From a bacterium (GTDB taxonomy: Bacteria > Patescibacteriota > Minisyncoccia > JACQLN01), in the NCBI GenBank assembly GCA_030697795.1, contig JAUYOV010000004.1, forward strand, positions 11,831 through 75,830: 64,000 nt of DNA, read 5' to 3'. This document shows, piece after piece, positions 5,192 to 38,058 of this stretch (position 1 is its first letter; every line of letters begins with the position of its first letter). Below the pieces are notes generated by a model. That model searched no databases, was not told the origin of the DNA, and saw only the letters and a program-made list of their open reading frames with translations. The translations under genes and the position numbers were made by a program.

Positions 5192-5273
5192 ATATATCAT
5201 CCCGAGTAGCATCATGGAGAAGACTATTTATATAAATAAAGAGGCTCCATGTCGTCTGCGAGGGGTGATATAT
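5192..5273. repeat. Copy A of the ~80-nt intergenic hairpin element, a candidate REP-doublet (REPIN-like; core CCGAGCAGCATTATGGAGAAGACT...AGGCTCCATATCGTCTGCGAGG)
   Basis: One of 4 copies sharing a ~60-nt core (about 80-90% identity by eye), with terminal inverted arms (ATATATCATCCC/GGGTGATATAT) that covary between copies. Confidence 0.8.
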
Positions 5274-5289
5274 TTACGCCAATAAACAC

Positions 5290-6282
5290 TTAAATTTTTA
5301 TACTTCTCAAATACTCGGCCACTTCGTCGGGATCAGTATTTATAACTTCACCACCCGTACCTAATTCAAAACCGCCCCAAACACCTACTCTGGGGTTTAT
5401 TTCTAAATGCCAATGGTAAAAACTGTAATCGTGTTCGGCATCGGTGGGCGGAGTATGTATAAAAAAGTTATACGAGGGATTATTTAAACCATGAAAAATT
5501 TTGGCTAAAGAAACTTTTAAAGCTTCGGCCAAATCTTTTAATTCTAAAGTATTTGCTTCTTCAAAAAAAACTTGATGTTTTTTAGGAAAAATTCTTATTT
5601 CGTAAGAAAATCTTGGCACGTAAGGCACTAGAACCACAAAATTATCGTTTTCGAATATTACTCTTTTCTGTTCTTTAAGCTCCCATTCTATAATATCGCA
5701 ATGGACACAGCGTTTTCTTTCTATTTTATATATAGCCGAACCCGATAAACTTCGGCTAATATCCGATGGTATAAAAGGTATGGCCAATATTTGAGAATGC
5801 GGGTGCGACACCGAGGCGCCAGCCTCACGGCCGTGATTATGTATTATTAAAATATAATTAGCGCATTCTTTATTTTTAAGATTATTGTATCTATCGTGAT
5901 AAGCCGAAACAATTTGCCAAACATTTTCGTTATCTAATTCCGCTATACTTTTTTTATGATCTTTAAAAATTACAACTTCGTGATACCCCGCCGAATCTTT
6001 TATTAAATATGGGCCATATCTTTTTTCTGAATTACAAGCCTCGCCTTTTATTATGGGGAACTTATTATTAACAACTTTTATGCCAGAAGAGTAATTTTTT
6101 ATAATTTCGTTGCCGTGAGCTTTGGGGTCTTCGAAGGGACAAAGATTAATTAGGGTTTCTTCGTGGAAATTTTTGTTCAACCCAAAAAAATCCGGCCTTT
6201 TGGATCTGCCAGAAGAAATTATTATCCAATCGCGACTGACCGGATCTTGGCGAAGTTCTGAAGTTTCTTTTTTATTCTCCAT
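5290..6282 (-). CDS. galT: Galactose-1-phosphate uridylyltransferase (HIT-like GalT family)
   Basis: CPF...HPHSQ(I) His-Pro-His active-site motif; ~330 aa. Confidence 0.7.
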   Translation of the reverse strand: MENKKETSELRQDPVSRDWIIISSGRSKRPDFFGLNKNFHEETLINLCPFEDPKAHGNEIIKNYSSGIKVVNNKFPIIKGEACNSEKRYGPYLIKDSAGYHEVVIFKDHKKSIAELDNENVWQIVSAYHDRYNNLKNKECANYILIIHNHGREAGASVSHPHSQILAIPFIPSDISRSLSGSAIYKIERKRCVHCDIIEWELKEQKRVIFENDNFVVLVPYVPRFSYEIRIFPKKHQVFFEEANTLELKDLAEALKVSLAKIFHGLNNPSYNFFIHTPPTDAEHDYSFYHWHLEINPRVGVWGGFELGTGGEVINTDPDEVAEYLRSIKI

Positions 6283-6399
6283 TTTTGACTAAATAGAACA
6301 GAATCGTTTCGAGCGATTTCAAGGAGGTTCAATTTATTTATAAAGAGGGAGGATGTAAGTGCTCCTCCTTGCAGGAGCGAGAAATGATTCTGCGACCAC

Positions 6400-7146
6400 T
6401 TAATTATATTTTCCCCTCCACAAATTTAATCTTACTTTTATAGTATCACGTAACACGCCTAAATAACCTGATAACTTTACATGGCTCTCGGCATCGTTTT
6501 CCCAATAAATAGGAATGATGCTAATTTTATACTTGAATTTTCTAGCCAGAGCCAACACCTCTACATCAAAACCCCAACGATTTATGGTTGCCTTAGAAAA
6601 TATTTTATTAGCAGCTTCAGCCGAAAAACCCTTAAAGCCATTCTGCGTATCCCAGATGCCAAAAACAGCCACCACCTGAATAAAAATATTGCCCATATTG
6701 CCCAGCAAACGCTTAAAGGCTGGTTGCGGTATGGCTTGCGTAGCCCCGATGGCATCTTTATAATCACGCGAGCCAATAACAACATGGAAGCCCTCTTTGA
6801 ATTTGGAAATCATTTTTTCTAGATGCTTGATATCTGTAGAATTATCGGCATCGGTAAAAACCCTGTACTCACCCTTGGCTTCTAGCATGCCTTGCTTAAC
6901 CACAAAACCTTTGCCGTGGTTTTGCTTATTACTGATTACTTTTAACTGGGGCCAATCTTTGGCCAATTTTTGAGCTACCTCGGCCGTGGTATCTTTGGCG
7001 CCATCTACCACAACCAAAACTTCATATGTATAATCTTGAGCAGATAAATATTCCTTGACTCTTTGGAGGGTTTTAGCGATTCTTTTTTCTTCGTTATAAG
7101 AGGGAATTATTATAGATATATATGGATCCATATTGTTTTGATTCAA
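6400..7146 (-). CDS. Family 2 glycosyltransferase (dolichyl-phosphate sugar transferase-like)
   Basis: ISIIIPSYNEE...DADNS GT2 motifs (DxD). Confidence 0.75.
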   Translation of the reverse strand: MNQNNMDPYISIIIPSYNEEKRIAKTLQRVKEYLSAQDYTYEVLVVVDGAKDTTAEVAQKLAKDWPQLKVISNKQNHGKGFVVKQGMLEAKGEYRVFTDADNSTDIKHLEKMISKFKEGFHVVIGSRDYKDAIGATQAIPQPAFKRLLGNMGNIFIQVVAVFGIWDTQNGFKGFSAEAANKIFSKATINRWGFDVEVLALARKFKYKISIIPIYWENDAESHVKLSGYLGVLRDTIKVRLNLWRGKYN

Positions 7147-7204
7147 TTATAGCAAATCCCGTTAGAAACAGCCCGCCCGTGGCGGGCGCGATTTCTAACG
7201 GGAC

Positions 7205-7238
7205 ATAAAAAAACGGCTCCGTTTTTTGTACGGAGCCA
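7205..7238 (-). terminator. Rho-independent terminator after the 7247..7594 gene
   Basis: GGCTCCG-loop-CGGAGCC hairpin followed on the minus strand by a U-run (plus-strand AAAAAAA at 7207-7213). Confidence 0.6.
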
Positions 7239-7246
7239 TAACACCA

Positions 7247-7594
7247 CTATTCGATCTTACCCAATTCGAGCTTAAGCTCTTGCGTCAACTCAGCTAGCTC
7301 ATCTTCATGTTCGCTTGGCTTTTCTGTTTGTTGTACTAACAAACTTAATTGGATCTCTTCACGGACATCTTCTGCTATGCATGCTTTCATTTCTTCTTCT
7401 TGTTTATCTGAAAGAGGCATTGTACCAACAACCAAAGTGAACTTAGCCGGGTTTGTAAAAACAATAGAGCACTTTGTACATATGTAAAGTGGCGACTTGT
7501 TGAAAGTGTCATCAGTTATAAGATCTTGTGAATGACCTATAGATTCATAATCTCTATTGCCACAAACCGCACACTTAAAAGAAACTTTATCCAT
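7247..7594 (-). CDS. Hypothetical protein with N-terminal CxxC...CxxC zinc-ribbon and acidic C-terminus
   Basis: ORF only; CAVCGN...CTKCS. Confidence 0.4.
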   Translation of the reverse strand: MDKVSFKCAVCGNRDYESIGHSQDLITDDTFNKSPLYICTKCSIVFTNPAKFTLVVGTMPLSDKQEEEMKACIAEDVREEIQLSLLVQQTEKPSEHEDELAELTQELKLELGKIE

Positions 7595-7612
7595 TTTTGC
7601 CTCCTTTTTGAT

Positions 7613-7837
7613 TTAGTTAGCCATAGTTAACATTTTTTGCAACGAAATTTCTCCTGTGTAGTAATCCTTATACTTTACGTAGTCTGTGATAAAAATATAA
7701 GCCAAGGAAAAAATAGATCCAAAATGTAAAGAAAGCCAGCTTACTAATCCGTTTTGAAATTGGTGAAAGAACCAAAACGAGGTAAGACCCCAAATCAAAA
7801 TCCCAACACAAGCATGCTGCCTATCGGAAAGTTGCAT
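7613..7837 (-). CDS. Small hypothetical membrane protein
   Basis: Hydrophobic 74-aa ORF in a gene-dense minus-strand run. Confidence 0.3.
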   Translation of the reverse strand: MQLSDRQHACVGILIWGLTSFWFFHQFQNGLVSWLSLHFGSIFSLAYIFITDYVKYKDYYTGEISLQKMLTMAN

Positions 7838-7885
7838 AAATAACCTCCTTTTTAAAGGTACAAAGCTTGAACTAAAATACCAGAA

Positions 7886-8257
7886 TTACGCTATGCGGTC
7901 AAGATAGGTCTGTAAAATAAGCGCGGCGGACGATTCGTCTATTTTTGTAGAATTTTCCGCAGCCATTTTAGAAGAAAATATTTCGTTAATAGTTTCCACC
8001 GAAACATCGGTGCGGGCTTCTAGATCTTCGGAAAATTCAATAATTTTTTGGGCAAACTCATTTACTTCGCCGTTAAAACTTACAGGAATTCCGACAATTA
8101 TTTTTTCTACAGCTTCCGTATTAACAATATCGGCGAGTTCGTTTAAAACGCCTTCGCTATTTAAAATAGTTTTTAAAGGTGTCGCTATTTTTAATAAACT
8201 ATCCCCCTTGGCTAAACCTATTCTTTTTTCACCATAATCAATTCCTAAATAAATCAT
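7886..8257 (-). CDS. ruvX: Holliday junction resolvase-like RuvX/YqgF
   Basis: MIYLGIDYGEKRIGLAKGD N-terminus. Confidence 0.85.
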   Translation of the reverse strand: MIYLGIDYGEKRIGLAKGDSLLKIATPLKTILNSEGVLNELADIVNTEAVEKIIVGIPVSFNGEVNEFAQKIIEFSEDLEARTDVSVETINEIFSSKMAAENSTKIDESSAALILQTYLDRIA

Positions 8258-8267
8258 AAACTAAATA

Positions 8268-8354
8268 CAATCGCATCATTCCGAGCAGCATTATGGAGAA
8301 GACTAAATTATAAATAAAGAGGCTCCATATCGTCTGCGAGGAGTGATGCGATTG
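8268..8354. repeat. Copy B of the ~80-nt hairpin element
   Basis: Same core; terminal arms CAATCGCATCA/TGATGCGATTG. Confidence 0.8.
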
Positions 8355-8359
8355 GAAAA

Positions 8360-8917
8360 TTATATAAAATATATCAAAACCACCAGTGCCAACACAAGAA
8401 CAATAAATTCAAAAATAGCTATAGGATGAAGTTTAAGATAATATTTTCTAAACCAATGATCATGGCCATATCTACTGACAACATTTCTAAGTTCGTTAGG
8501 CGACCATGAGACCATAAAACTATGACCGAATAAACTGCCGTTGATGTCGGAAAAAAACTTATAAGCTCTGTTAGAAAACGGCCACCACCATTTTATGCCC
8601 CAACCCATGCCAACACTATCATGCAAAAAATGGGCTAATAAATTAAGGCCGATAATAAAAGCCCAAAATTGACCAAAGAAATAATAAACTGCCCAAACCA
8701 AAGGAGTAAAAGTTAAAGGAAAATGGGTTAGTTCGCGATGATGACCTTGAACTCTGCCACCAATCCTGCCCCTTTTGGCGAGTTCAACAAAAACATCTAA
8801 ATCGGGAATTAGGTTAGCCAACACGCTCATGATCGTCAACTTCAACGACAAATCAATCTCATAAATATGAGAGGCTAAAATAGAAATCAATATTCCAATT
8901 CCAATATCAAAAGGCAT
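8360..8917 (-). CDS. Membrane-bound metal-dependent hydrolase-like protein (YdjM/DUF457-like)
   Basis: Polytopic membrane protein with a GHHRELTH motif. Confidence 0.45.
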   Translation of the reverse strand: MPFDIGIGILISILASHIYEIDLSLKLTIMSVLANLIPDLDVFVELAKRGRIGGRVQGHHRELTHFPLTFTPLVWAVYYFFGQFWAFIIGLNLLAHFLHDSVGMGWGIKWWWPFSNRAYKFFSDINGSLFGHSFMVSWSPNELRNVVSRYGHDHWFRKYYLKLHPIAIFEFIVLVLALVVLIYFI

Positions 8918-8926
8918 TACGGGGCA

Positions 8927-9691
8927 TTACGACTTTGTTAAAACTTCCGCACCTTTTTTTGTAACAACAACTGTGTGTTCAAAATGCGCAGCTAAACTTT
9001 TGTCTTTTGTCTGATAAACAAAACCATCTAAGCCTAATTCTACCGCAGATTTACCAATTGTTACCATTGGTTCAATTGCTAGAACCATGCCTTCTTTTAA
9101 CAGTGGTTCATCGCCTTTACTGCCATAGTTAGGCAAAAACGGATCTTCCTGTAAATTTTTGCCTACACCATGCCCTGTTAAATCTTTTACCACCGAAAAC
9201 TTGGCCGCTTCCACATGGCGTTGCATTTCCCAAGCGATATCACCCCAATAAATATTGGGCTTTATCATACTAATAGCTAAATCCAGAGCGCCTTCGGTTA
9301 CCAATATAAGTTGTGTAGCTTTTTCAGAAATTTCACCCATGCCAAAAGTTACAGCGCTATCGGTATGATAACCGTTATAAAAAACTCCTAAGTCTAAACT
9401 AATAATATCTCCATTTTTTAAAACCCTATCATCGGGTACGCCATGCACAACTTCATAATTTAAAGAAGCGCATAAAGCAGACGGATAGGCTTTTTTAGCG
9501 CCAGCAGGTTTGTAACCCTTAAAAGAAGATTTAGCTCCATAACCCAAAATAAGCTTCTCGGCCAAATTATCCAAATAACCTAAACTAACACCTTCTTTTA
9601 CTTCTAAAGAAAGCTCTTGTAAAACACGCGCCAGGATTTTTCCTCCTTGGCGCATGATTTCTATTTCTTCTGGTGTTTTGATTTGTATCAT
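8927..9691 (-). CDS. map: Methionine aminopeptidase type I; true start MIQIKTPEE, not the ORF-track start
   Basis: MAP type I fold motifs. The ORF-track start at 9733 is an ATG inside repeat copy C. Confidence 0.9.
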   Translation of the reverse strand: MIQIKTPEEIEIMRQGGKILARVLQELSLEVKEGVSLGYLDNLAEKLILGYGAKSSFKGYKPAGAKKAYPSALCASLNYEVVHGVPDDRVLKNGDIISLDLGVFYNGYHTDSAVTFGMGEISEKATQLILVTEGALDLAISMIKPNIYWGDIAWEMQRHVEAAKFSVVKDLTGHGVGKNLQEDPFLPNYGSKGDEPLLKEGMVLAIEPMVTIGKSAVELGLDGFVYQTKDKSLAAHFEHTVVVTKKGAEVLTKS

Positions 9692-9713
9692 GGTAATGGT
9701 AAAAAATTTAAAA

Positions 9714-9793
9714 AACATTGTCCCGAGCAGCATTATGGAGAAGACTATTTTATAAAATAAAGAGGCTCTATATCGTCTGCGAGGGATAATGTT
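9714..9793. repeat. Copy C of the ~80-nt hairpin element; fills the whole adk-map spacer
   Basis: Same core; arms AACATTGTCCC/GGGATAATGTT. Confidence 0.8.
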
Positions 9794-9795
9794 TT

Positions 9796-10362
9796 TTATA
9801 ACCCCAGTACCTGTTTAATTCGCAAATGAATTTCCTCTATACTACCCATACCATCAACCTTAATCAACCTATTCGATTTTTCGTAATATTCTATAGCTGG
9901 CATTGCATCGGTATTAAACCATTCCAAACGATGACGAATTGATTCTTCGGTATCATCTTTGCGTCCGCGTTTTAAAAGCCTTGTTACTGCTTCGTCTTCT
10001 GTAATATCTATTAAAACAACTTTAATATCTACTCTACCCAACCAACTTAAAACTTCGTCTATTTCTTTGGCTTCATCTAAACGACGAGGTGAGCCGTCAA
10101 AAATTATATTTTCTCCATCTTTTAATTTATAAACTAGTTCCTTCTGCCATAAAAAAGCGGCAATCCACTCTGGGGGCAGACCACCAGAATCCACAACTTC
10201 TTTAACTTTTTTACCAGCTAAAGTCTCTTCTTTTTCTAATAAACGAAAAAGATCGCCGGCGTAAATATAAAGACAGGGTTCTATAAGCTTTTTTAAAAGC
10301 TTAACCTGCGTGCCCTTACCCGACCCCGATCTGCCTAAAACGATTATGGTTTTACTAGACAT
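9796..10362 (-). CDS. adk: Adenylate kinase
   Basis: GRSGSGKGTQ P-loop and DGSPRRLDEA; start taken at MSSKT. Confidence 0.8.
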   Translation of the reverse strand: MSSKTIIVLGRSGSGKGTQVKLLKKLIEPCLYIYAGDLFRLLEKEETLAGKKVKEVVDSGGLPPEWIAAFLWQKELVYKLKDGENIIFDGSPRRLDEAKEIDEVLSWLGRVDIKVVLIDITEDEAVTRLLKRGRKDDTEESIRHRLEWFNTDAMPAIEYYEKSNRLIKVDGMGSIEEIHLRIKQVLGL

Positions 10363-10447
10363 AATAGATCTATAATAGCACAGCAAGATATCTTAAGAAA
10401 AAGCTCCCTTAATGGGAGCTTTTATAACTTTGAGGACTTGAAATCAG

Positions 10448-11062
10448 TCAGTCATCACAGGGTGTAGAACGCCTATAATCTTCGAATCTACTTCCTGTAA
10501 AAAAATACTGCATCGCAAGTTCTTTTAAAACACTTCTATCGCCTTCACAAAAAAGAACAAAGTACTCTGCTATTTTTTCCACTTCTTCTTTTTTCCTTGG
10601 GCAAGACATTCCTCCATCTAATAAATCAAAAAGACGGCCGCGAAGTAAACTGTAACTATCAAGACTTTCTACCAATCTCATTTCATGGAAATCTTCGCTA
10701 TGTTTTCCATGCCTATCCCAAAAAATACAACTAGCCTGCTTGAGAGCTTCGACTATACTTTCAAGATCTTCAACTTTTACTTCTGGAAATAAAAACGCAT
10801 AATTTCCAAAAATATCTGCTATTGATACTCCCAAGAGTCTTATTACTTCCTTGGGCAAAGAAATATCTTTATATGATTTGTTTGATTCTTCTGCACTCGT
10901 AACTCCGTACTCCCTCAACCAGTGTCCCAAGTGAGCTGTATAATATATTGGGTCATTGCCCAACTTAACTTTTTCAAACCCAACATACATCTCAATGACC
11001 TGCGGTGGCTTTTCCAAAGAAAGAAGAGATTCTCTCTTCTTTGATTCTACAGCCTTTTTCAT
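10448..11062 (-). CDS. Hypothetical protein
   Basis: ORF only; no confident family. Confidence 0.4.
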   Translation of the reverse strand: MKKAVESKKRESLLSLEKPPQVIEMYVGFEKVKLGNDPIYYTAHLGHWLREYGVTSAEESNKSYKDISLPKEVIRLLGVSIADIFGNYAFLFPEVKVEDLESIVEALKQASCIFWDRHGKHSEDFHEMRLVESLDSYSLLRGRLFDLLDGGMSCPRKKEEVEKIAEYFVLFCEGDRSVLKELAMQYFFTGSRFEDYRRSTPCDD

Positions 11063-11173
11063 ACAAAACCCCTTTCTTTTTTTAAAAAATGAATGATTTA
11101 AAGAACGACAAGAGTATACTATAAATAAATATAAATATCAAATACGTGCGCATAGAACAGACAGATCAACTAC

Positions 11174-11211
11174 TTGTCCACTTTTCAGGCGATCACATTA
11201 AAAATGGACAA
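11174..11211. repeat. 38-nt palindromic repeat TTGTCCA-N24-TGGACAA, downstream copy flanking the PaaX-like gene
   Basis: Near-identical to the copy at 11786-11823, including the internal ATCACATT. Confidence 0.7.
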
Positions 11212-11231
11212 CTTACTATTATTCTAATTTT

Positions 11232-11786
11232 CTAATTTAAACCAAATCTACTGCGTAAAAAATTGTCATTGGTTATACTTTTGGTAACAATATAATGAAC
11301 ATACTTACCTACTCCAAAAACTTCAGCGATAAAATCAACTTCGTTTTGGCAATTGTATGGATAAATCCAAACACTTTTCTGGAAAGGTATTAAACCCAAA
11401 TTTTTCATTTTTTCTCCCAAAGCATTGCGAGCCGATTTTTTATTTTCTGGAATATCAAAAACGACAATATGCCAATCGCCATCCCATTTTTTAGCTTTTT
11501 TTATAACCAGGCTATCAAACCTATATTCTAAAATCTTTTTCTTGCCTTGTTCGGTAAGAATAATTTTGACTTTATCATCACCCTCCTCTAAAAATTCTAA
11601 AACCTTGGTTTGACGTAACCGCCATAACACCTTTGAAACTTTCCTGGAACTAACACCTTTAACCTTAATATTATAATTAAAACCTCTACCCGATCTAGTG
11701 GTCTTGACCATTGGAATGTAAAACGGATCAAAAAAATATTTGCCAAATATGGTTTTGAGAATAATTTTGGTGATTGTATAAGCCAT
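11232..11786 (-). CDS. PaaX-like winged-helix regulator with Cas2-fold C-terminal domain (paralog 1)
   Basis: W(H/R)IV(V/L)FDIPE...QKSVWIYP PaaX_C/Cas2-like signature; paralog at 50272..50844. Confidence 0.55.
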   Translation of the reverse strand: MAYTITKIILKTIFGKYFFDPFYIPMVKTTRSGRGFNYNIKVKGVSSRKVSKVLWRLRQTKVLEFLEEGDDKVKIILTEQGKKKILEYRFDSLVIKKAKKWDGDWHIVVFDIPENKKSARNALGEKMKNLGLIPFQKSVWIYPYNCQNEVDFIAEVFGVGKYVHYIVTKSITNDNFLRSRFGLN

Positions 11787-22633: not shown

Positions 22634-22791
22634 ACTTACTAAATTTCGAAATTCGAATATCGAAATCCGAAACCCTACTTCGCTAAAGCTTCGTAGGGCA
22701 CAGCAATATCACTTATTTGGATTTGCTTGCCCGCCGTAGTTTTAACAGAGGCGGGTTTCGAATTTCTGATTTCGTGCTTCGAATTTTATTT

Positions 22792-26840: not shown

Positions 26841-26918
26841 GTCGGGGGTAGCTCAATTGGTCAGAGCGGCTGACTGTGGATCAGACTGTGTCGGTTCAAA
26901 CCCGGCTCCCCGGCACCA
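26841..26918 (+). tRNA. tRNA-His (anticodon GTG) with G-1:C73
   Basis: Manual cloverleaf: G-1, acceptor TCGGGGG/TCCCCGG, D-arm GCTC/GAGC, anticodon loop CTGTGGA, T-arm GTCGG-TTCAAAC-CCGGC. Confidence 0.7.
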
Positions 26919-27017: not shown

Positions 27018-27123
27018 TCCGCGGTAACTCAGAGTGCTGACTTAAGGGCCGCAAGCCCCGGCCGGTTAGAGTGCCTAGCTGATAACTAGGAGGTCGTTGG
27101 TTCGAATCCAACCCGCGGAGCCA
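27018..27123 (+). tRNA. tRNA-Ile (anticodon GAT) carrying a ~31-nt hairpin insertion in the D-loop
   Basis: Acceptor TCCGCGG/CCGCGGA, D-stem ACTC/GAGT, anticodon arm CCTAG-CTGATAA-CTAGG, T-arm GTTGG-TTCGAAT-CCAAC, G73-CCA. Insert 27033-27063 AGTGCTGACTTAAGGGCCGCAAGCCCCGGCC. Confidence 0.5.
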
Positions 27124-29683: not shown

Positions 29684-30745
29684 TTAATCTTTCGGCGCAG
29701 TAGTGTAGTCCTTTGAGACTAAAAGTTCTCTATATTTTTCTGTATCTTCTAAAACTATACCCGTACCACGAGCCACCGCGGTTAAAGGATCATCGGCCAC
29801 TTTAACCGCAATGCCTGTTTCCTTGTTTATTAATTCATCTATGCCGCGCAGTAAACTGCCGCCGCCCGCTAAAACTATACCCCGCTTCATAATATCACCC
29901 AAAAGTTCGGGCGGAGTCTTTTCTACAATTTCCCTAACCATATCCACAATAGTTTTAACGGATGGTAATATAGCTTTTTTAACGTCTTTGGAAGTTATAA
30001 TAACCTCCTTGGGTAAGCCAGTTATTAAATCGCGCCCGCGCATAGTGGTTTCAAGTTTTTCACTTAAATCTATAACGCTACCCACTGCTATTTTTACCTC
30101 TTCGGCCGAACGAGGTCCTAAAAGTAAATTGTGGTCGTCGCGCGCCAATTGAATAATATCTTCATTTAGTTTTTCGCCCGCTATTCTTAAACTTCGCCCC
30201 GCCACTAAACCACCTAAAGAAATAACCGCTACCTCCGTGGTGCCACCGCCGATATCTACAATCATATTGCCCAAAGCTTCCTGAACAGGCAATCTGGCGC
30301 CTAAAGCCGCCGCCACAGGCTCTTCTATCAACATAACTTCTCTAGCGCCGGCATTGCGCGCCGCTTCTTCTACCGCTCTTTTTTCTACTTCGGTTACACC
30401 CGATGGAATTCCAATAACTACCCGAGGCCGAGGCACCATATAAAAAGACTCACCGTGAACTTTTTGGAAAAAATGCTTAAGCATCTGCTCGGTCACTTCA
30501 AAATCAGAAATAACGCCATTAGCCAAAGGTTTAATCGCTACAATATGATTAGGTGTTCGGCCCAACATTTTTTGGGCTTCTCGGCCAATAGCTAAAACCT
30601 GCCCTGTTTTTTTATTAACCGCAACTAAAGAAGGTTCGTTAACCACAATGCCACGATCCTTAACATAAATAAGGGTGTTGACTGTTCCCAGATCAACACC
30701 TATATCTTTAGCAAAATGACCAAAAAATTTATTCAGTAAATACAT
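29684..30745 (-). CDS. mreB: Rod shape-determining actin homolog MreB
   Basis: DLGTVNTLIYV..., full actin-fold motifs. Confidence 0.9.
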   Translation of the reverse strand: MYLLNKFFGHFAKDIGVDLGTVNTLIYVKDRGIVVNEPSLVAVNKKTGQVLAIGREAQKMLGRTPNHIVAIKPLANGVISDFEVTEQMLKHFFQKVHGESFYMVPRPRVVIGIPSGVTEVEKRAVEEAARNAGAREVMLIEEPVAAALGARLPVQEALGNMIVDIGGGTTEVAVISLGGLVAGRSLRIAGEKLNEDIIQLARDDHNLLLGPRSAEEVKIAVGSVIDLSEKLETTMRGRDLITGLPKEVIITSKDVKKAILPSVKTIVDMVREIVEKTPPELLGDIMKRGIVLAGGGSLLRGIDELINKETGIAVKVADDPLTAVARGTGIVLEDTEKYRELLVSKDYTTAPKD

Positions 30746-30841: not shown

Positions 30842-32128
30842 TTAGAGTTTAGTGCTTAGGATTTGGAGTTCGATTAGAAATTTTTCTAACTCTTTTAGTT
30901 TAACCATCTCCACTTTCTCGCTGGCGCGATTTTTGACCTCCACACTTTCTTGCGCCAAAGTTTTATCGCTAACTATTATCCGATATGGAATACCAATTAA
31001 ATCAGCATCCGACAACTTTACACCGGCCGATTCTTCGCGATCATCCCATAAGACGTCAAACGTCTTTAAAGATTGATACAGCTTCTCGGCTTCTTTCTTG
31101 GTATCGCCCAATGAAACTAAATGAATTAAAAACGGAGCCACGCTCTTTGGCCACTTCATTCCAGCCTCATCGTTAAAAACTTCGGCCAGCACTCCAACTA
31201 AACGGCTCATACCTATACCATAACTGCCTAAGTATGGCGGTTTATCTTTACCATCGGAATCTTTAAAATTAATCCCCATTTTTTCGGAATAAACTGTGCC
31301 AAATCTAAATATATTTCCAATTTCAACGGAACTAGCTTCTTCAACTTGTCCACCGCATTTTGGACAAGGATCCCCAATCTTGTGAGTATAAATTTCTTTG
31401 TTTTGCGCCCAATCACATTCGCCAGCCGGCGAATTGCAGAAATAAATATTATCTTCACCTACTGGGCTTACTAACTGAAATTCATGTGTATGACCCGAAG
31501 TAAACACACCGCCCGAAGCTTCAACCACCTTAACATCTTTTAATCCAACCCTGTTAAACACTCGTAAATAAGCATCTTTAACTTCCCAGTAAAATTTGTC
31601 TAGATCTTCCCCTGTGGTATGCAAACTATATAAATCTTTCATCATAAACTCCCGCCCGCGCAATAGGCCTGACTTAGCCCGAGCCTCGTTTCTAAACTTG
31701 GTAGAAAAGTGATAAAGCTTAATCGGTAAATTTTTATAGCTTAAAGAATTTTTCCTAACTACATCTAAAAATATTTCCTCGTGTGTAAAAGAAAGTCCAT
31801 ATTCTTTTTCGTCTACCGATTTAAACTGATACATTATCTGTTTAACATTTGGATCTGCCCAACGGCCGGTTTCATTCCAAACATCGCGAGGATGAAGTAA
31901 TGGCATTAAAACTTCGGCACTGCCAATAGCATTCATTTCTTCACGCACGATTTGTTCTATTTTTTGATAAACCCGCCAACCTAAAGGCAAAAAGGTGTAT
32001 GAACCCGCCATAAGCTTGTCTACAAAACCCCCACGCAAAAGCAACCTAGCATTAGTAGCTGTTTCGTCCTTTGGATCATCCCTGCGAGTGTTTATAAACG
32101 ATTGAGAGTAACGCATAAGAGTTATCAC
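30842..32128 (-). CDS. proS: Prolyl-tRNA synthetase (short form lacking the INS editing domain)
   Basis: MRYSQSF..LLRGG..YTFLPLGWRV..IVREEMN..G..EVLMP, closely paralleling E. coli ProRS motifs. Confidence 0.85.
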   Translation of the reverse strand: MITLMRYSQSFINTRRDDPKDETATNARLLLRGGFVDKLMAGSYTFLPLGWRVYQKIEQIVREEMNAIGSAEVLMPLLHPRDVWNETGRWADPNVKQIMYQFKSVDEKEYGLSFTHEEIFLDVVRKNSLSYKNLPIKLYHFSTKFRNEARAKSGLLRGREFMMKDLYSLHTTGEDLDKFYWEVKDAYLRVFNRVGLKDVKVVEASGGVFTSGHTHEFQLVSPVGEDNIYFCNSPAGECDWAQNKEIYTHKIGDPCPKCGGQVEEASSVEIGNIFRFGTVYSEKMGINFKDSDGKDKPPYLGSYGIGMSRLVGVLAEVFNDEAGMKWPKSVAPFLIHLVSLGDTKKEAEKLYQSLKTFDVLWDDREESAGVKLSDADLIGIPYRIIVSDKTLAQESVEVKNRASEKVEMVKLKELEKFLIELQILSTKL

Positions 32129-32316
32129 TAATATAGCTAATCGACGCTAATATAGCGAATTAATTTTTATTAGCTATATTCGCTTTCAATTCGCCATATT
32201 CGCGAAAAGTATTGATAGATTTTAACACCCCATTCAATGTCTGACAATTATTTTGACAAAAAACTATCTAGGTGTTAATTTATTAAAGTTCTTTAAACCT
32301 ATAAAAAGGAGAGGTT

Positions 32317-32745
32317 ATGCTTACCACTAGGCATGTAATAGGCTCAATGACATTGGAGTTGTGTCGGCTTTTGATTGAGTTAGACAGACTGTTTGTAGGC
32401 AATCTGGACGGATGGTTGCCCATAACTAGAATCGAATTAGAGTATATAAGACCAAAAAAGATACGCAGTCATACCAAAGACCTAAAAGTTAAGCTTCTGC
32501 CCGAAAATTGGCCAGTTGAATCGGAAATCTTCTGTAAATTATGTAAAACTGGAAATATCTGGAATGTTTGTGAGGTAACAATAAAAGCGCCTCATGTGCA
32601 CAGCTCGGAAATAGGCGGCATAGATATAGTTCTGCCGGTAATCGGTGGAAATATACTCTTGCCAAATGAGGTAGGATCCCCGAGTTCTGACGTGATAACA
32701 AACATAATGATTCAATCAAAACTCCGGAATAAGTTATACTCCTAA
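32317..32745 (+). CDS. Hypothetical protein
   Basis: ORF only; followed by a terminator. Confidence 0.4.
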   Translation: MLTTRHVIGSMTLELCRLLIELDRLFVGNLDGWLPITRIELEYIRPKKIRSHTKDLKVKLLPENWPVESEIFCKLCKTGNIWNVCEVTIKAPHVHSSEIGGIDIVLPVIGGNILLPNEVGSPSSDVITNIMIQSKLRNKLYS

Positions 32746-32748
32746 AAT

Positions 32749-32786
32749 GATCCCGCACCTTTTTAATTAAAAAGGTGCGGAATTTT
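32749..32786. terminator. Second copy of the CCCGCACCTTTTT/AAAAAGGTGCGG terminator hairpin
   Basis: Same stem as 20577-20617. Confidence 0.55.
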
Positions 32787-32789
32787 ATT

Positions 32790-32823
32790 TAGCATGAGCC
32801 ATGCGATCGCATGACTCATGCTA
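32790..32823. repeat. GCGATCGC-core palindrome TAGCATGAGCCATGCGATCGCATGACTCATGCTA (REP3 family)
   Basis: Family members at 50245-50280, 50896-50929, 52902-52931. Confidence 0.7.
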
Positions 32824-32862
32824 TTTTTTAAAAAAAGAAGAATATTTCTTCTTTTTTTAAAA

Positions 32863-33942
32863 TCAGAAAAATTTAACTATATCTTTCCAAGTTACAAAAA
32901 ACATTAGCGCGAGCAACAAAAGAAACCCTCCTATATTTACAGTATTTTCAAATTTTTGGCTTAAGGGCGAACCCTTAATTTTTTCTACTATTAAAAACAC
33001 TAATCTGCCGCCATCCAGCGCTGGAAAAGGCATAATATTTAGTATGGCCAAATTAACAGATAGTATGGCTACTAAATTTAATAAATAAACCATGCCCATG
33101 TTGTAAGCTTCGCCCGTCAAAGAAGCTATGCCAATGGGGCCAGTAATTTCACCCATAACTCTGCCTTCAATAAGTAAGGTTTTAAAAAACAAAAACAAAG
33201 CCGAGCCAATCACCCAAACCATAAAACCTAAATCTTTTAAACCACTCCATAAAAATAAATACCAGGGCGATTTAACTAAACCTGTTTTGGCCAGAGCCAC
33301 GCCCAAAGCGCCTTCACTTTGTGGAGGATTAACACGCGGGGTTATTTTAATATCTACATTTTCTTTGCCTCTTAATAAAACTAAATTTATTTCTTGACCA
33401 GCTTCGCCTTCTACAAAAGATTTAAATTCCGAAATTTCGGAAAATGTTTTTAAGGTGCCATCTGACAATTTTATGCCACTAATAGCATCGCCCATTTTAA
33501 TGTCTGCGTTTGACGCGGGAGAATTTTCAGCCAGAGCCGTAATTTGAATTTTAATATTTGTGGCCTTGGCACTATTGGTTTCGTCTAAAACCATCGGCCG
33601 GCCCATTAAATTTCCAAAACTTAAAAGCACATAGGCCAAAACTAAATTCATAAAAACACCAGCGCAAACTATCTTAACTCTTTTGGATATTTTAAGCGAA
33701 GAAAAACTACCGGCTTCGTTTCTGTGTTCGCCCGATTCACCAAATATTTTTACAAAACCACCAAACGGAATTAAATTAAAAGAAAAAACCGTCTCGCCTC
33801 TTTTTATAGAAAAAACCTTTGGCGGAAAGCCAAAGCCAAATTCTTCCACCTTGGCACCGGCCTTTTTGGCGGTTATGTAATGACCGTATTCGTGAACCAA
33901 AACCAAAGCAGATAATACGATAAAAAATACTAGGATAGTCAT
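32863..33942 (-). CDS. rseP: RseP-like site-2 zinc metalloprotease (M50) with PDZ
   Basis: HEYGHY HExxH motif, LDGG motif. Confidence 0.8.
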   Translation of the reverse strand: MTILVFFIVLSALVLVHEYGHYITAKKAGAKVEEFGFGFPPKVFSIKRGETVFSFNLIPFGGFVKIFGESGEHRNEAGSFSSLKISKRVKIVCAGVFMNLVLAYVLLSFGNLMGRPMVLDETNSAKATNIKIQITALAENSPASNADIKMGDAISGIKLSDGTLKTFSEISEFKSFVEGEAGQEINLVLLRGKENVDIKITPRVNPPQSEGALGVALAKTGLVKSPWYLFLWSGLKDLGFMVWVIGSALFLFFKTLLIEGRVMGEITGPIGIASLTGEAYNMGMVYLLNLVAILSVNLAILNIMPFPALDGGRLVFLIVEKIKGSPLSQKFENTVNIGGFLLLLALMFFVTWKDIVKFF

Positions 33943-34099
33943 AAATGTCTAATATCCAATTACTAATATCGAATCAATGACTAATTTATAAATGCCTAAT
34001 TTTGAATTTAGTTATTAGACATTGGGATTTGATTAGAAATTATCCCTCGATTGGGCTCGGGATCCTGAGCCTGTCGAAGGAGGTATTAGAAATTGGAAA

Positions 34100-34654
34100 T
34101 TAACTCATAAGCTCTTTTTCTTTTTTATTTTTTAAATCTTCCAACGCCTGATTATTTTCTTTCATCGCCTTTTCTATTTCATCCTTTTTTCTAAACTTAA
34201 TATCTTCCGATTTTTCTTGCTGAGCGCTTTTTACAGCCTCATCCCGCAACCTACGAGTTCTTATTTTTGCTTCTTCCAATTTTTGAGAAACAAGCTTTAT
34301 AAGTTCTTGCCTGCGTTCTTGAGTTAACTGGGGCAAACTTATTCTAATACTTTTACTGTCGGCAATTGGTTGAGCGCCAATATTAGCGTTAGTAATAGCT
34401 TTGGCTATCGGTTCTAAAGCGCTTTTATCCCAAGGCTCTACAACCAAAGTTCTGGCATCCAGCGAACTTATGCTGGCCATACCTTTTATTGGAGTTTTAT
34501 TGCCAAAATAATCAACCAAAATATCTTCCACCAAAGCCGGCGAGGCTCGGTTACTGCGTATTTTTGATAGTTCGCCCGTCAAAAATGTGGTGGCTTCTTT
34601 TAGCTTATTTTTAAAATCTTGCGTCTCCATAACAATAAAACCAGCATAACACAA
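34100..34654 (-). CDS. frr: Ribosome recycling factor
   Basis: Full-length RRF. Confidence 0.9.
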   Translation of the reverse strand: MCYAGFIVMETQDFKNKLKEATTFLTGELSKIRSNRASPALVEDILVDYFGNKTPIKGMASISSLDARTLVVEPWDKSALEPIAKAITNANIGAQPIADSKSIRISLPQLTQERRQELIKLVSQKLEEAKIRTRRLRDEAVKSAQQEKSEDIKFRKKDEIEKAMKENNQALEDLKNKKEKELMS

Positions 34655-34691
34655 AAAAGTCTAGATTATAAACCCTCTCGATTTATTCCCC

Positions 34692-34720
34692 ACATGTTCA
34701 ACATTCAATGTTGAACATGT
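34692..34720. repeat. REP2 palindrome ACATGTTCAACATTCAATGTTGAACATGT, left flank of RAYT-2
   Basis: Perfect palindrome; copies at 34901-34925 (inside the CDS) and 35390-35418. Confidence 0.85.
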
Positions 34721-34734
34721 TATAATTTTGATAT

Positions 34735-35391
34735 ATGAGAAAAACAATTTTGGCCGAAGGCGAATATTATCATATCTATAATCGTGGTGTAGAGAAAAGA
34801 AACATATTTTTAAACGATAACGATAAGTGGCGATTTATGACCCTCTTACTAATATTTCAAGGCAAGGGTCATATTGATAATATGCAACGTATTGTTAAAC
34901 TTGTTCAACATTCAATGTTGAACAAAGAACCATTTGACGACATCCTTTTGAATAAAAAGGTTGAACTGATATGTTTCTGTCTGATGCCAAATCATTATCA
35001 CCTTATATTAAAAGAAATTAAAAATGGAGGAATTTCTAGTTTTGGGCAAAGATTAGGTAACAGTTATACAAAATATTTCAACACTAAATATAAACGCACT
35101 GGACACTTATTTGGTGGAAGATTTCAAACGGTTCACATAACTCAAAATACATATCTCAAACATTTATCTTCTTATATACACAATAATCTAACAGAACTAA
35201 ATAATTGGAAAAAATTGGAAAACGAATATTTTTGGTCAAGTCTGCCAGATTATGTAAATAAAAACCGATGGGATAAGTTTCTAAACCCGGAAATAATTCT
35301 AAACCAGTTTAGGGGTAAAAATGATTATCTAAATTACATCAAAAATAATCGAAACAAAATTAAAAAACTAGATGGTTACTATATAGATTAA
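34735..35391 (+). CDS. REP-associated tyrosine transposase (RAYT), copy 2
   Basis: GEYYHIYNRGV, LMPNHYHLIL HuH motif; paralog of 26032..26706. Confidence 0.7.
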   Translation: MRKTILAEGEYYHIYNRGVEKRNIFLNDNDKWRFMTLLLIFQGKGHIDNMQRIVKLVQHSMLNKEPFDDILLNKKVELICFCLMPNHYHLILKEIKNGGISSFGQRLGNSYTKYFNTKYKRTGHLFGGRFQTVHITQNTYLKHLSSYIHNNLTELNNWKKLENEYFWSSLPDYVNKNRWDKFLNPEIILNQFRGKNDYLNYIKNNRNKIKKLDGYYID

Positions 35392-35418
35392 TTGTTCAAC
35401 ATTCAATGTTGAACAATT
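35390..35418. repeat. REP2 palindrome, right flank of RAYT-2
   Basis: AATTGTTCAACATTCAATGTTGAACAATT. Confidence 0.85.
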
Positions 35419-35431
35419 GGATCAGAGAGAT

Positions 35432-35470
35432 AATAAAAAGAGGCGTTCGATTAAGTCGAACGCCTCGGTG
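35432..35470 (-). terminator. Rho-independent terminator (GAGGCGTTCGA...TCGAACGCCTC plus U-run) ending the GC-rich small-gene transcript
   Basis: Strong 11-bp stem followed by a minus-strand TTTTT. Confidence 0.6.
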
Positions 35471-35647
35471 AGGATCTGCTTCCCCATGGCTCTCCATTTT
35501 TGATTCAATCGGTTCAAAAACGGGGACAAAAGACCTTTTCGTAGTGTGGTTTAAGTTACCAACTTCGTCGCATTCCTCTCACCTCCTTTCGTACACGCCG
35601 CTTGGTTTTCTCCAGAGGCGGCGGCCGAAGTTACCAGCTCACAGAGC

Positions 35648-35872
35648 CTATTTCTTGTTTCCCATCATGGCTTTGGCGGTCAGCAGACCAACGAAACCGG
35701 ATCCCACTCCCACCATCATCCATAACCCCATAGGCACAGGGTCTGGATGGGAATTGAATGAAGCCCCCAAGGCGATGCGTATATCATTCCCGATCTGGAA
35801 ACCAAACTGCACCGCCATTACGCTGAAACCCGCCGTCAGAATCGACGCGAAAAACATGATTACCTTTCTCAT
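35648..35872 (-). CDS. Small glycine-zipper membrane protein (74 aa) in a GC-rich island; start at MRKV
   Basis: GC ~50% island 35430-36000; SD GAAGGGG; two TM helices with GxxxG repeats. Confidence 0.45.
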   Translation of the reverse strand: MRKVIMFFASILTAGFSVMAVQFGFQIGNDIRIALGASFNSHPDPVPMGLWMMVGVGSGFVGLLTAKAMMGNKK

Positions 35873-35934
35873 TTTTTCCCCTTCTAAAGGGTTAAGAGTA
35901 TTTGTTAGTGTACTATCCTTTTCTAGCCTGTCTC

Positions 35935-35990
35935 TATCATAGCATAGTCCAATATGGCTTGTCAACCCCGCTCTTGAAATCTCAAGGGCG
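35935..35990 (-). promoter_or_regulatory. Second copy of the conserved hairpin (CCCCGCTCTTGAAATCTCAAGGGCGGGG) plus TTGACA element, upstream of the GC-rich small gene
   Basis: Aligns with 19080-19135 (ATAGTC...CTTGTCAA...CCnCCCTTnAAATCTCAAGGGnGGGG). Confidence 0.45.
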
Positions 35991-36074
35991 GGGCAAAAAG
36001 CCATACAAAAAACCTCATTTTAAGAGGCTTTTTTCTATCGAAGTGGAACTTCGATAGATTTCTTCGATAGATTT

Positions 36075-37205
36075 TTACTTTGGAAGTATAAAAAGCGAAC
36101 TTTGGTTAGATTTCTTGCCAGAACCGCTGGTTCCGGCAATTATTTTATCTGGGTTTTTAGGATCAACCCATAGAGTCCTAATTTGCCTAGCAGTGCCAAG
36201 TTTTCGTATCTGCCAAAATTTGCCGGCATCTTTGCTAGAATAAATAAAATTGCTAGCTGAAACAAAAATATTCGGCGAACTTCTGCCGCCAAAAGCTATA
36301 TCGGTTACGGGCAAAATGTCGTTAGCAATAACAATGTCCGCCGCCTGCCAGTTTATGCCAAAATCGTAAGACTTTATTAAACCAAACTTGCTAGTTAAAT
36401 AAACTCCGCCATCGGCTGGATTATATAAAACCTTTTCAATAAATTTAGCATTTTTAAAAGATCTTAGACCTTCGGTATCGTCCGTCCAACTTGCGCCACC
36501 ATCTGGCGAGGTAAATATGCTTCCAGAAAAAGTGGTAACCAACATTTGGCTAGAACTACTAGGGTTAATAAGCAAATAATTTATGGCCTTGCCAAATTCT
36601 TGTTGCAACTTCCAAGTTTCGCCGCCATCTTGGCTTTTTAATAAATTGCCCTCGCCCGTGGCCACCCACACAATATTGGGATTATGCGGATCCACCGCCA
36701 CATCAAAAACTGGGAAATTTGCGCGGGAAGTCAAATAAACTTCTTTAAACGAAAGTCCGCCATCTTCGGTTTTTAAAACCTTGCCCGACTTATTTTGATA
36801 CACCGCCAAATAAAATTTATCGGGAATGTCTTTGTTATAATTTGGAAAACGTGGATCGGCCGCTAAGGCAAAAACACTGGCCCGAGGAGCTAATATATTA
36901 TTTTTATCTCCAAGTTTATACCAAACCTCACCGCCATCGACACTTTTTAAAACTCCAGCGCCTAAAGTGGCAGCGTATAAAATTCTGGAATCTTTAGGGT
37001 TAGATTTGATTTCTAAAATATTTAATCTGTTTATACTGCCGCCCGTAGCCAAAGCACCTATCTTTTTCCAGGTAGTGCCCCTATCCACGCTAATAAAAAA
37101 ACCGCCTTGCGGGTTTAAAAATTCGCCAAAATAAACCTGCCCCACAAACAAAGCTATTGAGCCTAATACGGCAATAAAAATTATAAATTTTAATAAACCA
37201 GCCAT
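36075..37205 (-). CDS. BNR/Asp-box repeat beta-propeller protein, membrane-anchored or secreted
   Basis: Repeated S-x-D-G-G-x-(T/S)-W Asp-boxes. Confidence 0.6.
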   Translation of the reverse strand: MAGLLKFIIFIAVLGSIALFVGQVYFGEFLNPQGGFFISVDRGTTWKKIGALATGGSINRLNILEIKSNPKDSRILYAATLGAGVLKSVDGGEVWYKLGDKNNILAPRASVFALAADPRFPNYNKDIPDKFYLAVYQNKSGKVLKTEDGGLSFKEVYLTSRANFPVFDVAVDPHNPNIVWVATGEGNLLKSQDGGETWKLQQEFGKAINYLLINPSSSSQMLVTTFSGSIFTSPDGGASWTDDTEGLRSFKNAKFIEKVLYNPADGGVYLTSKFGLIKSYDFGINWQAADIVIANDILPVTDIAFGGRSSPNIFVSASNFIYSSKDAGKFWQIRKLGTARQIRTLWVDPKNPDKIIAGTSGSGKKSNQSSLFILPK

Positions 37206-37208
37206 TTA

Positions 37209-37967
37209 CTATATTTTAAAAAATAGATTCTCTAAAACCAACCGCGCGTTAACATTTGTAGATATTAAAAGACTTTTTGCCTGGGCCAGATTTTCTATAA
37301 ATTCGGCTTTATCTTTTTTATTAGCGTTAGTTAACAATTCAACTCTTAATTTAATAAGCCAAATATCTAACACTGGAAAGAAATTTTCTTTTTTGGCTAT
37401 TTCTTCGGCTAAATCAATTCTTTCTGCCAAAGTAAGATTTTGAACATTACCAAGCTTGCTAACAATTATATCATCTTTTGGGCTACGGGTTTTATTAAAA
37501 ATATCCTCGTTATAGAAAGGCAGGCTAACTACTCTAGAAATAATAGTTTTTGGTATATTTTTAATATTATTAGCCAGAATAAAAAAAATAGTATTACCCG
37601 TTGGCTCTTCCAGTGTTTTTAAAAGCGCATTCCAAGCTTCTTCGTTTAAATATTCGGCTTCTTTTATAAAGATGCCTTTATATTTAAAGTGGCTAGAGGT
37701 TAACGAGGCAAAATCTTTAAGCTTTCTTATTTGAGCTATGCCTATTTCCTTCTTGCCTTCCTCCCTGCTTATAAAAAGAGTATCGGGGTGAAATTCTTTT
37801 TCTATTTGTTTTTTATCTTCGGCTTTATTTATTTTAACCAAAAAATTCTTGGCTAAATTTATTTGGTATTCAAAATCAGAACCATACAAAAGCAAGGCGT
37901 GGGGAATAGTATTGTTTTTTAAAACTAAATCTAAATATTTTAATTGGCGCGAGTACATAAAATTCAT
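37209..37967 (-). CDS. holB: DNA polymerase III delta-prime subunit; start at MNFMYS, not the ORF-track start
   Basis: PHALLLYG motif. The ORF-track start is an ATG inside repeat copy D. Confidence 0.65.
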   Translation of the reverse strand: MNFMYSRQLKYLDLVLKNNTIPHALLLYGSDFEYQINLAKNFLVKINKAEDKKQIEKEFHPDTLFISREEGKKEIGIAQIRKLKDFASLTSSHFKYKGIFIKEAEYLNEEAWNALLKTLEEPTGNTIFFILANNIKNIPKTIISRVVSLPFYNEDIFNKTRSPKDDIIVSKLGNVQNLTLAERIDLAEEIAKKENFFPVLDIWLIKLRVELLTNANKKDKAEFIENLAQAKSLLISTNVNARLVLENLFFKI

Positions 37968-37969
37968 CA

Positions 37970-38058
37970 GCAGAAATATTATCTTGAGCAGCATTGTGGA
38001 GAAGACTATTTATATAATAAAGAGGCTCCACATCGTCTGCGAGAGATAATGTTTCTGC
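37970..38058. repeat. Copy D of the ~80-nt hairpin element
   Basis: Same core; arms GCAGAAATATTATCT/AGATAATGTTTCTGC. Confidence 0.8.

Follow-up and report, generated by a model that had tools for sequence, protein, structure and literature searches.

Several families of small palindromic repeats are known from bacterial genomes. The ERIC/IRU sequences of enterobacteria (enterobacterial repetitive intergenic consensus sequences, or intergenic repeat units) are imperfect palindromes of ~127 bp that form a long single hairpin with a conserved centre and lie in short transcribed intergenic regions of operons; they show presence/absence polymorphism, and their orthologous copies are conserved beyond neutral DNA. 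The Correia elements of Neisseria and the Rickettsia palindromic elements are small non-autonomous palindromes of compact genomes that are co-transcribed with their neighbors, the former having 26-bp terminal inverted repeats and a TA duplication and the latter inserting in frame within genes. Here we describe a comparable hairpin element of ~90 nt that occurs five times in a 64,000-nt stretch of a Patescibacteriota genome (contig JAUYOV010000004.1). This whole stretch is hereafter the window, to which all coordinates and strands refer; other inspected loci or contigs are labeled by L-numbers (L001 etc.). Full-text literature searches retrieved no description of the element. Tentatively, and with slightly more doubt than confidence, we interpret it as belonging to a previously undescribed family of non-autonomous palindromic repeats in Parcubacteria-like Patescibacteria, of the same kind as the repetitive extragenic palindromic sequences and their mosaic arrays (REP/BIME), ERIC and Correia elements, with a fold that is selected on one strand.

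All five copies in the window are on the + strand, and four of the five are clustered within 5189-9798 (Table 1). Copies 1-4 are near-identical and define the form that we refer to as type 1, while copy 5 is a diverged type 2. The four type 1 copies and their shared orientation had been reported in a first-pass annotation of this DNA and were recovered exactly as described there. The fifth had escaped it and was detected with a covariance model built from 16 copies (match at 6295-6395, 29 bits, E ~3e-4); it has the motifs GAGCGATTTCAAGGAGG...CCTCCTTGCAGGAGCGAG and a P3 stem of CAAGGAGG:CCTCCTTG, and keeps the P1 and GA/GA architecture of the other copies. Searched with filters off, the window yielded nothing to this model beyond the five copies. 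Two core motifs, TCGTCTGCGAG and AATAAAGAGGCTC, are each present exactly four times in the 64 kb, where 0.2 occurrences of the first would be expected (~0-0.2 for the core motifs overall). The genes next to every copy are housekeeping genes on the − strand, in agreement with the annotation, and this strand holds ~85% of the genes. The best homologs of the Map protein are from metagenome-assembled genomes (MAGs) of Parcubacteria, Sungbacteria and Minisyncoccia.

The fold of the element starts with a closing stem that is variable (P1) and continues through a tandem GA/GA loop and two further stems (P2 and P3) to a 25-nt loop. Across the family the closing stem has 12-19 bp, P2 has 5 bp with a bulged T/U, P3 has 7 bp with GGAG/CUCC, and the loop is purine-rich (AAGAC...AAUAAAGAGG). 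That each of the four copies noticed at first is an ~80-nt hairpin with an imperfect inverted-repeat core is borne out by shuffle z-scores of −5.8 to −8.5. When 16 type 1 copies, drawn from the window and from public contigs, were aligned, pairing held in 97.1% of the cells and 14 of the 28 pairs showed changes on both sides; none of 500 shuffles was as good, and partners that were slid as a control paired in only 34-47%. RNAalifold, run independently, returned the same structure. The covariation that had been suggested for the closing helix is real and extends into the core, where U-A alternates with C-G at pair 26-65 and A-U with G-C at pair 27-64, and a single G.U is found at 29-62. The accompanying statement that the terminal arms differ between copies applies to the outer 2-8 bp of P1, which are private to each copy; the inner 8-13 bp do share a consensus, (A)AAAYATCRYYCC...GGRRYGATRTTTT, i.e., (A)AAAYAUCRYYCC / GGRRYGAURUUUU. 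The most constant feature across all subfamilies is the tandem GA/GA loop with its adjoining G-C pairs. The element has, in short, a secondary structure backed by covariation and, as follows, a defined strand, both of which are properties of structured RNAs.

The asymmetry between the strands is pronounced. In the modeled pairs of 38 unique copies, the + (or pattern) strand has 60 G.U wobbles versus 8 A.C mismatches, and the same copies read on the reverse strand have 2 G.U versus 21 A.C. The + strand also folds better than the − strand, by 4-11 kcal/mol as RNA and by 1-4 kcal/mol as DNA. Wherever C-G and U-A alternate at a given pair, the intermediate is always U.G and never C.A. Stem substitutions between orthologous copies comprise 20 exchanges between Watson-Crick and G.U pairs, 11 compensatory changes (for instance, G19-C73 to A-U in P2 between copy 3 and its L018 ortholog) and four exchanges between Watson-Crick and A.C pairs, all four of which sit in pairs misaligned by nested insertions. 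Orientation is similarly biased, as 39 of 43 copies are antisense to the gene whose stop codon lies a median of 6 nt from the 3′ end of the element. In the operon mRNAs the upstream stop is 1-13 nt before the element, the adk stop codon even being overlapped by the P1 foot of copy 3, and the next start usually follows at a median of ~14 nt. The exceptions are the copies in L002 and L003, which are between divergent genes, the type 2 copy in L012 and the type 1 copy in L014. As the GC skew of the + strand is negative throughout the window, including over + strand genes, we take the − strand to be the leading strand; the folded + strand, from which the flanking genes are transcribed, then also serves as the leading-strand template. 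A skew of this kind would imply G→A or T→C changes on the + strand, which create A.C pairs, and the wobble asymmetry is therefore probably not a mutational by-product. The skew at individual loci follows gene direction, so that replication and transcription are confounded in it. Judging from these substitutions, the fold of one particular strand (+ in the window) is under selection that continues after insertion.

Comparison with relatives that keep the gene order adk-map-ydjM-ruvX...GT2-galT-tpiA-pgk-recJ-rnhA (GT2, family 2 glycosyltransferase) allowed us to follow the element at orthologous junctions. None of the four junctions is filled in L030, the closest relative (91% identity in Map): at adk/map, ydjM/ruvX and GT2/galT the genes run into each other by 4-11 nt, stop over start codon and with no hairpin, and galT-tpiA has a 65-nt spacer holding an unrelated AT hairpin. 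A long-variant copy is nevertheless present elsewhere in L030, between dnaG and rpoD. L018 (Map 70% identical) has copies in common with the window at adk-map and ydjM-ruvX, and these are orthologous to those of the window because the private part of P1 and the spacer are identical (P1 of copy 2 is the same throughout in the L018 ortholog). The galT-tpiA junction is occupied by type 1 in the window and L028, by a hybrid in L018, and by type 2 in L032, L033 and L034, while GT2-galT has type 2 in the window, a type-1-like copy with a nested hairpin in L033, another palindrome in L032 and no element in L030 and L018. Altogether, sites filled in the window and L018 are empty in L030, L032, L033 and L035, and the converse was also seen. 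From this pattern it follows that the element has been gained and lost in the manner of a repeat, which bears out its earlier description as dispersed. We found no target-site duplication, as judged by direct repeats at the feet of the element and by comparisons of filled and empty sites, although the divergence of the flanks limits the power of these comparisons. Nor do the copies share a conserved terminal sequence of the sort found in the terminal repeats of miniature transposable elements moved by DDE transposases, only the inner P1 being common. The lack of both is as expected for movement of the HUH type rather than the DDE type.

In the comparison with L018 no other segments of the region are as well conserved as the elements, over which identity peaks at 90-95% against a coding background of 65-80%. 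Similarity across 3000-11500 of the window is a mosaic, closest to L030 overall and L018-like near the elements, and the match to L018 rises to 90-95% within ~50 nt of the two elements they have in common, a stretch that takes in the codons for the C termini of adk and ydjM. Because the window is L018-like only in the vicinity of the elements, recombination has probably carried filled alleles between lineages.

In total we identified ~43 copies in 25 contigs from MAGs of related Patescibacteria and from metagenomes. An exact-pattern scan of one genome per species gave 6 copies in 3 Patescibacteria MAGs, a metagenome scan gave 13 further true loci, and the remainder came from model searches of these matches and of syntenic loci. 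Ten additional metagenome matches of high GC content (L009-L011, L015, L019, L021, L023, L024, L027, and L029) were rejected as chance fits to the search pattern. Element length varies from ~85 to 130 nt across the family. A long form of type 1 (L002, L003, and L030) has two extra GC hairpins, CCCGCC..GGCGGG and CCUGCC..GGCAGG, which branch from the P2-P3 loop and the terminal loop and leave P1, P2 and P3 intact. Type 2 has the sequence GAGCGAYUUCAAGGAGG...CCUCCUUGCAGGAGCGAG, and in other variants P2 is GCUGCC/GGCUGC, GCGGC/GUCCGC or ACUGCC/GGCAGU. Certain copies contain nested CUUGC-NNNN-GCAAG hairpins or internal deletions. A small open reading frame (ORF) within the element was considered and dismissed, as the ATGs and reading frames vary between copies through loop indels and a P3 of either CAUG or UAUA. 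Searches for known relatives were negative: Rfam 15 gave only tRNAs at gathering score, and rescanning copy 1 (window 5150-5320) and the L003 long variant at E<=10 gave only chance matches resembling snoRNAs or miRNAs; the conserved loops prompted a comparison with known self-cleaving ribozymes and riboswitches, none of whose models fits; and neither half of the core is present in the viral contigs of IMG/VR.

The nested hairpins are of interest in their own right. Perfect hairpins with the common CTTGC-NNNN-GCAAG center, found at L033 13141-13253, L033 4288-4404, L022 5700-5807 and L037 12912-13049, represent another small palindromic repeat of the related genomes. Similar to the CCCGCC-NNN-GGCGGG hairpin within the long variants is a lone GC hairpin of the window, GCCCGCCACGGGCGGGC, at 7171-7187 (−), and such small GC hairpins may constitute a separate mini-repeat.

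Table 1. Coordinates of the element copies, the parts of the copy 1 fold, the transposase gene with its palindromes, and the gene orders around the copies.
Feature	Position	Strand	Remarks
Copy 1, type 1	5189..5276	+	between galT (5290-6282, −) and tpiA (4444-5181, −)
Copy 2, type 1	8268..8354	+	between ydjM (8360-8917, −) and ruvX (7886-8257, −)
Copy 3, type 1	9709..9798	+	between adk (9796-10386, −) and map (8927-9691, −)
Copy 4, type 1	37970..38058	+	between mreB (38070-39074, −) and holB (37209 to ~37960, −)
Copy 5, diverged type 2	6299..6392	+	between GT2 glycosyltransferase gene (6400-7146, −) and galT
Copy 1, P1 closing stem	5189-5203 with 5262-5276
Copy 1, symmetric GA/GA internal loop	5204-5205 with 5260-5261
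Copy 1, P2	5206-5210 with 5254 and 5256-5259		GYAGC with G-[U]-CUGC; T/U5255 bulged
Copy 1, 2x2 loop	between P2 and P3
Copy 1, P3	5213-5219 with 5245-5251		YRUGGAG with CUCCAYR
Copy 1, 25-nt loop	5220-5244		conserved AAGACYA and AAUAAAGAGG around variable AU stretch
Y1 (HUH) IS200-like/RAYT-like transposase gene	34735..35391	+	218 aa; PF01797, 39 bits, cut-off 23
21-nt perfect palindrome GTTCAACATTCAATGTTGAAC	34696..34716	+	upstream of Y1 gene
GTTCAACATTCAATGTTGAAC, identical copy	34903-34923	same orientation	in frame in Y1 gene, encoding ...VQHSMLN...
GTTCAACATTCAATGTTGAAC, identical copy	35394-35414	same orientation	downstream of Y1 gene
Gene order 1		−	pgk, tpiA, element, galT, type 2 element, GT2 glycosyltransferase
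Gene order 2		−	ruvX, element, ydjM, map, element, adk
Gene order 3		−	holB, element, mreB

How does the element compare with the systems described? It differs from ERIC/IRU sequences in its unrelated sequence, its phylum, its variable termini in place of conserved inverted repeats, the absence of a TA duplication, its near-uniform antisense orientation, and its wobbles, which lie on the non-mRNA strand. To our knowledge neither Correia nor Rickettsia palindromic elements show strand-specific covariation. With REP sequences, BIMEs and REPINs (REP doublets) it shares the form of extragenic multi-copy hairpins near stop codons that lack target duplications, and compensatory changes such as those known in REP hairpins (PMC3116915). 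A single-copy gene for a Y1 HUH transposase of the RAYT type (REP-associated tyrosine transposase) is also present in the same genomes. However, REP sequences are defined by a GTAG or GTGG at their 5′ foot (PMC6006769), and no such tetranucleotide is found 0-2 nt 5′ of the hairpin foot in the element; REPINs have conserved ends and a variable middle, the reverse of what we observed, and head-to-head doublets, of type 2 with type 1, are confined to L012 and L014; and the RAYT-like gene of the window is bordered by a different, 21-nt palindrome. The suggestion made in the annotation that the element may be a REPIN is consequently not supported. Palindrome-associated elements derived from IS200/IS605 (PATEs) resemble it in their strand-specific folded DNA, orientation bias, and lack of inverted terminal repeats and duplications, but the element has no conserved target or cleavage tetranucleotide, consists of one 90-nt hairpin instead of two small subterminal ones, and has its folded strand on the leading-strand rather than the lagging-strand template.

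The Y1 transposase gene was found by a Pfam scan of 60 ORFs of the window. Its product has the motifs NHYHLIL and SYIHNN, and the best NCBIfam model for it is REP_Tyr_transpos (REP-associated tyrosine transposase), with a score of 31.7 bits that is below the cut-off of 80; a sequence search of the PDB gave only insignificant matches (ISDra2 TnpA, E=0.23). Homologs are widespread in Parcubacteria. One MAG, CAYJTN01, has a Y1 gene together with two element copies in L042 and further type 1 copies in L001 and L005, so that both it and the window genome combine the element with a gene of this type. In the window, L040 and L042 the gene runs opposite to the surrounding gene run, which is the polarity of the folded strand of the elements. 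The palindrome GTTCAACATTCAATGTTGAAC at the Y1 gene occurs nowhere else in the window than at the three sites in Table 1, and this flanking hairpin covaries between genomes, as seen from the versions at the homologs in L040 and L042 (the two that were inspected). Conversely, the covariance model finds no 90-nt element beside the Y1 gene of the window, L040 or L042, whereas in a REP-and-transposase unit (REPtron) copies of the repeat itself would flank the gene. The Y1 transposase is the only trans-acting candidate that we saw, and its link to the element is circumstantial because the elements do not flank the gene, have no GTAG-type foot, and have a polarity that is the reverse of the IS608 rule. 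Directly 3′ of the gene, 35420-35950 is GC-rich in surroundings of 38% GC and is possibly foreign DNA; overlapping ORFs at 35544-35942 (+) and 35648-36004 (−) in this stretch have no Pfam or NCBIfam match.

If the element is a mobile palindromic repeat, the folded single strand would be the form recognized by a trans-acting protein, most economically as single-stranded DNA (ssDNA) that is handled by a hairpin-specific enzyme, for which the RAYT-like Y1 transposase is a candidate. The uniform orientation could then result from a replication-linked rule of insertion or retention or, in another option, from counter-selection of the strongly folding strand within mRNAs. The operon mRNA would carry the weaker reverse complement, probably as a mere tolerated spacer or 3′ hairpin. 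Several observations weigh against this interpretation. The usual substrates of Y1 enzymes are short hairpins, and the Y1 gene of the window is flanked by its own, unrelated hairpins of 21-25 nt and not by the 90-nt element. At the feet of the element there is no conserved tetranucleotide of the GTAG or TTAC type, the 5′ flanks being A-rich. In the IS608 paradigm the active strand belongs to the lagging-strand template (PMC6006769), whereas the element has its well-folded strand on the opposite, leading-strand template. Movement is a deduction from the distribution of the copies, and the conservation between the window and L018 could be due in part to recent recombination rather than selection. 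Moreover, a functional RNA would account just as well for the strong conservation in place and for the invariant non-Watson-Crick motifs.

For these last two reasons a structured antisense RNA is a serious alternative, if on balance an unlikely one. The + strand would be transcribed by read-through or from a divergent start near the 5′ end of the downstream gene, and the conserved hairpin would serve the host, for example as a protein-binding site or by halting or tagging antisense transcripts ahead of the upstream gene, with its spread being secondary. Such an RNA would explain why wobbles and compensatory changes are confined to the + strand, even between orthologous copies, why the tandem G.A loop and the loop sequences are nearly invariant though the stems of the subfamilies differ, why the extra hairpins leave P1 to P3 undisturbed, and why the elements are so well conserved. 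The signals of transcription speak against it, in that −10-like hexamers upstream on the + strand have no positional enrichment and a U-rich stretch (5 or more U within 8 nt after the hairpin foot) follows the hairpin on this strand in only 1/36 copies. A −10-like TAnAAT does occur inside the loop, 2 nt before AGAGG, and a start there would leave out the 5′ half of the hairpin. The element matches no Rfam family, and the homogeneity of the subfamilies across genomes, the empty sites, the nested insertions and the deletion derivatives are marks of a repeat and not of a vertically inherited RNA gene. A related proposal, which we consider somewhat less probable still, is that of a strand-specific folded nucleic-acid site kept at operon junctions, either as a domesticated antisense RNA or as an ssDNA site like the attC sites of integrons. 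In its RNA version the tandem G.A motif and purine loop could be a protein-binding platform; in its ssDNA version the site could be the substrate of a recombinase, HUH or other, and its retention on the leading-strand template would be deliberate. Were it true, either version would explain the maintenance in place of pairing on a strand that is absent from the mRNA.

A role within the − strand operon mRNA, as implied by the annotation's placing of the element in minus-strand operons, is disfavored by the wobble asymmetry, and we regard it as quite improbable. The element would act there as a 3′ hairpin past the stop codon, in termination or attenuation, in protecting the upstream message from exonucleases, or in setting the proximity of stop and start for translational coupling; 3′ hairpin roles of this kind are described for some E. 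coli REP sequences. The stereotyped position between stop and start is what such a role would predict, the RNA of the − strand retains a good fold (−21 to −36 kcal/mol), and the U-rich stretch is present in the sense direction in 18/36 copies. However, the pairing that is maintained belongs to the other strand, antisense to these mRNAs, sense wobbles being almost absent and the sense RNA bearing A.C and UC/UC mismatches, and the position may simply be the sole place where an insertion is tolerated in compact operons. Termination in particular was not supported: the terminator scan makes no call at any element on either strand, though it does call canonical sense-strand terminators elsewhere (e.g., 7239-7213), and with its A-U rich foot and 25-nt loop the element lacks the GC-rich stem, short loop and direct U-tract of an intrinsic terminator, a candidate that we therefore rejected. 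Two further explanations we find hard to credit. In one, the conserved core was inserted into the loops of older terminator hairpins, as the annotation had offered as an option, and the variable arms are remnants of the target site; the outer base pairs unique to each copy would be accounted for, yet three of the four empty junctions have overlapping stop and start codons and no hairpin, the hairpin at the fourth (galT-tpiA) is unrelated, and the arms have their G.U pairs on the antisense strand, not on the sense strand as remnants of a sense terminator should. The empty sites thus argue that no such insertion took place. The other, to which we attach equally little weight, is that the element is an attC-like, single-strand-folded recombination site directly after ORFs. 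Much of the anatomy of an attC is recognizable, as both are structure-defined hairpins (60-140 nt in attC) with an "R-box-like" closing stem, an unpaired spacer, a second stem that has an extrahelical base, and a terminal structure that varies. The polarity agrees as well, since in chromosomal integrons, too, the recombinogenic strand is on the leading-strand template and runs antisense to the ORFs. The sequence is likewise homogeneous within a lineage while the structure is conserved between lineages. Against this, there is no conserved AAC...GTT core, C-G being present at pair 8-84 in only 7/16 copies; the scan of 60 window ORFs revealed no integrase; and the flanking genes are syntenic housekeeping genes rather than cassettes.

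The element also affects gene calling. The annotation had attributed false N-terminal extensions of map, holB and other genes to an ATG in the element. This is correct for map, whose ORF begins at 9733 inside copy 3 while the start backed by homology is at 9691, and is plausible for holB, whose ORF begins at 37994 inside copy 4. We suggest that the element be masked during gene calling in such genomes.

Other features of the region were recorded in the course of this work. The mreB gene next to copy 4 is one of two full-length MreB paralogs less than 9 kb apart (29684-30745 and 38070-39074, both −), the first of which is followed by mreC. A look-up of the window's MreB as an exact protein found no entry. 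A second family of repeats, unrelated to the element, consists of AT-rich intergenic imperfect palindromes of TCTAATATCTAAT-like units at 62248-62369, 39091-39188, 33944-34023 and 44032-44106. There are in addition a 149-nt imperfect palindrome between two genes at 22640-22788, with 61-nt arms that are 70% complementary, and a perfect 34-nt palindrome, TAGCACGAGAACTGCGATCGCAGTTCTCGTGCTA, at 50896-50929. Adjoining the tRNA-His at 26841-26918, Rfam calls a second tRNA at 27049-27119 (+; 30.1 bits, just over the gathering score) that ARAGORN does not call. Paralogous genes with a PaaX central/Cas2-like domain, at 11232-11786 (−) and 50272-50844 (−), are also found in L032-L037 and L042 at variable positions, and at 11172-11500 the DNA of one is 82-85% identical to L018 and L033, above the local background. 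Genes for a TrwB/TraG-like type IV coupling protein (54446-56167, −) and a PemK/MazF-like toxin (45661-46173, −) lie amid housekeeping genes.

Patescibacteria, or the candidate phyla radiation (CPR), have small, tightly packed genomes whose repeats, non-coding RNAs and mobile DNA are little known. The junctions compared here indicate that insertions of ~100 nt can separate, and then persist between, even those housekeeping genes that overlap and are translationally coupled. The family also poses a clean puzzle, namely the preservation of a fold for the strand that is antisense and the leading-strand template. Its answer would tell either of ssDNA transposition in an unusual polarity in the CPR or of a widespread antisense structured RNA.

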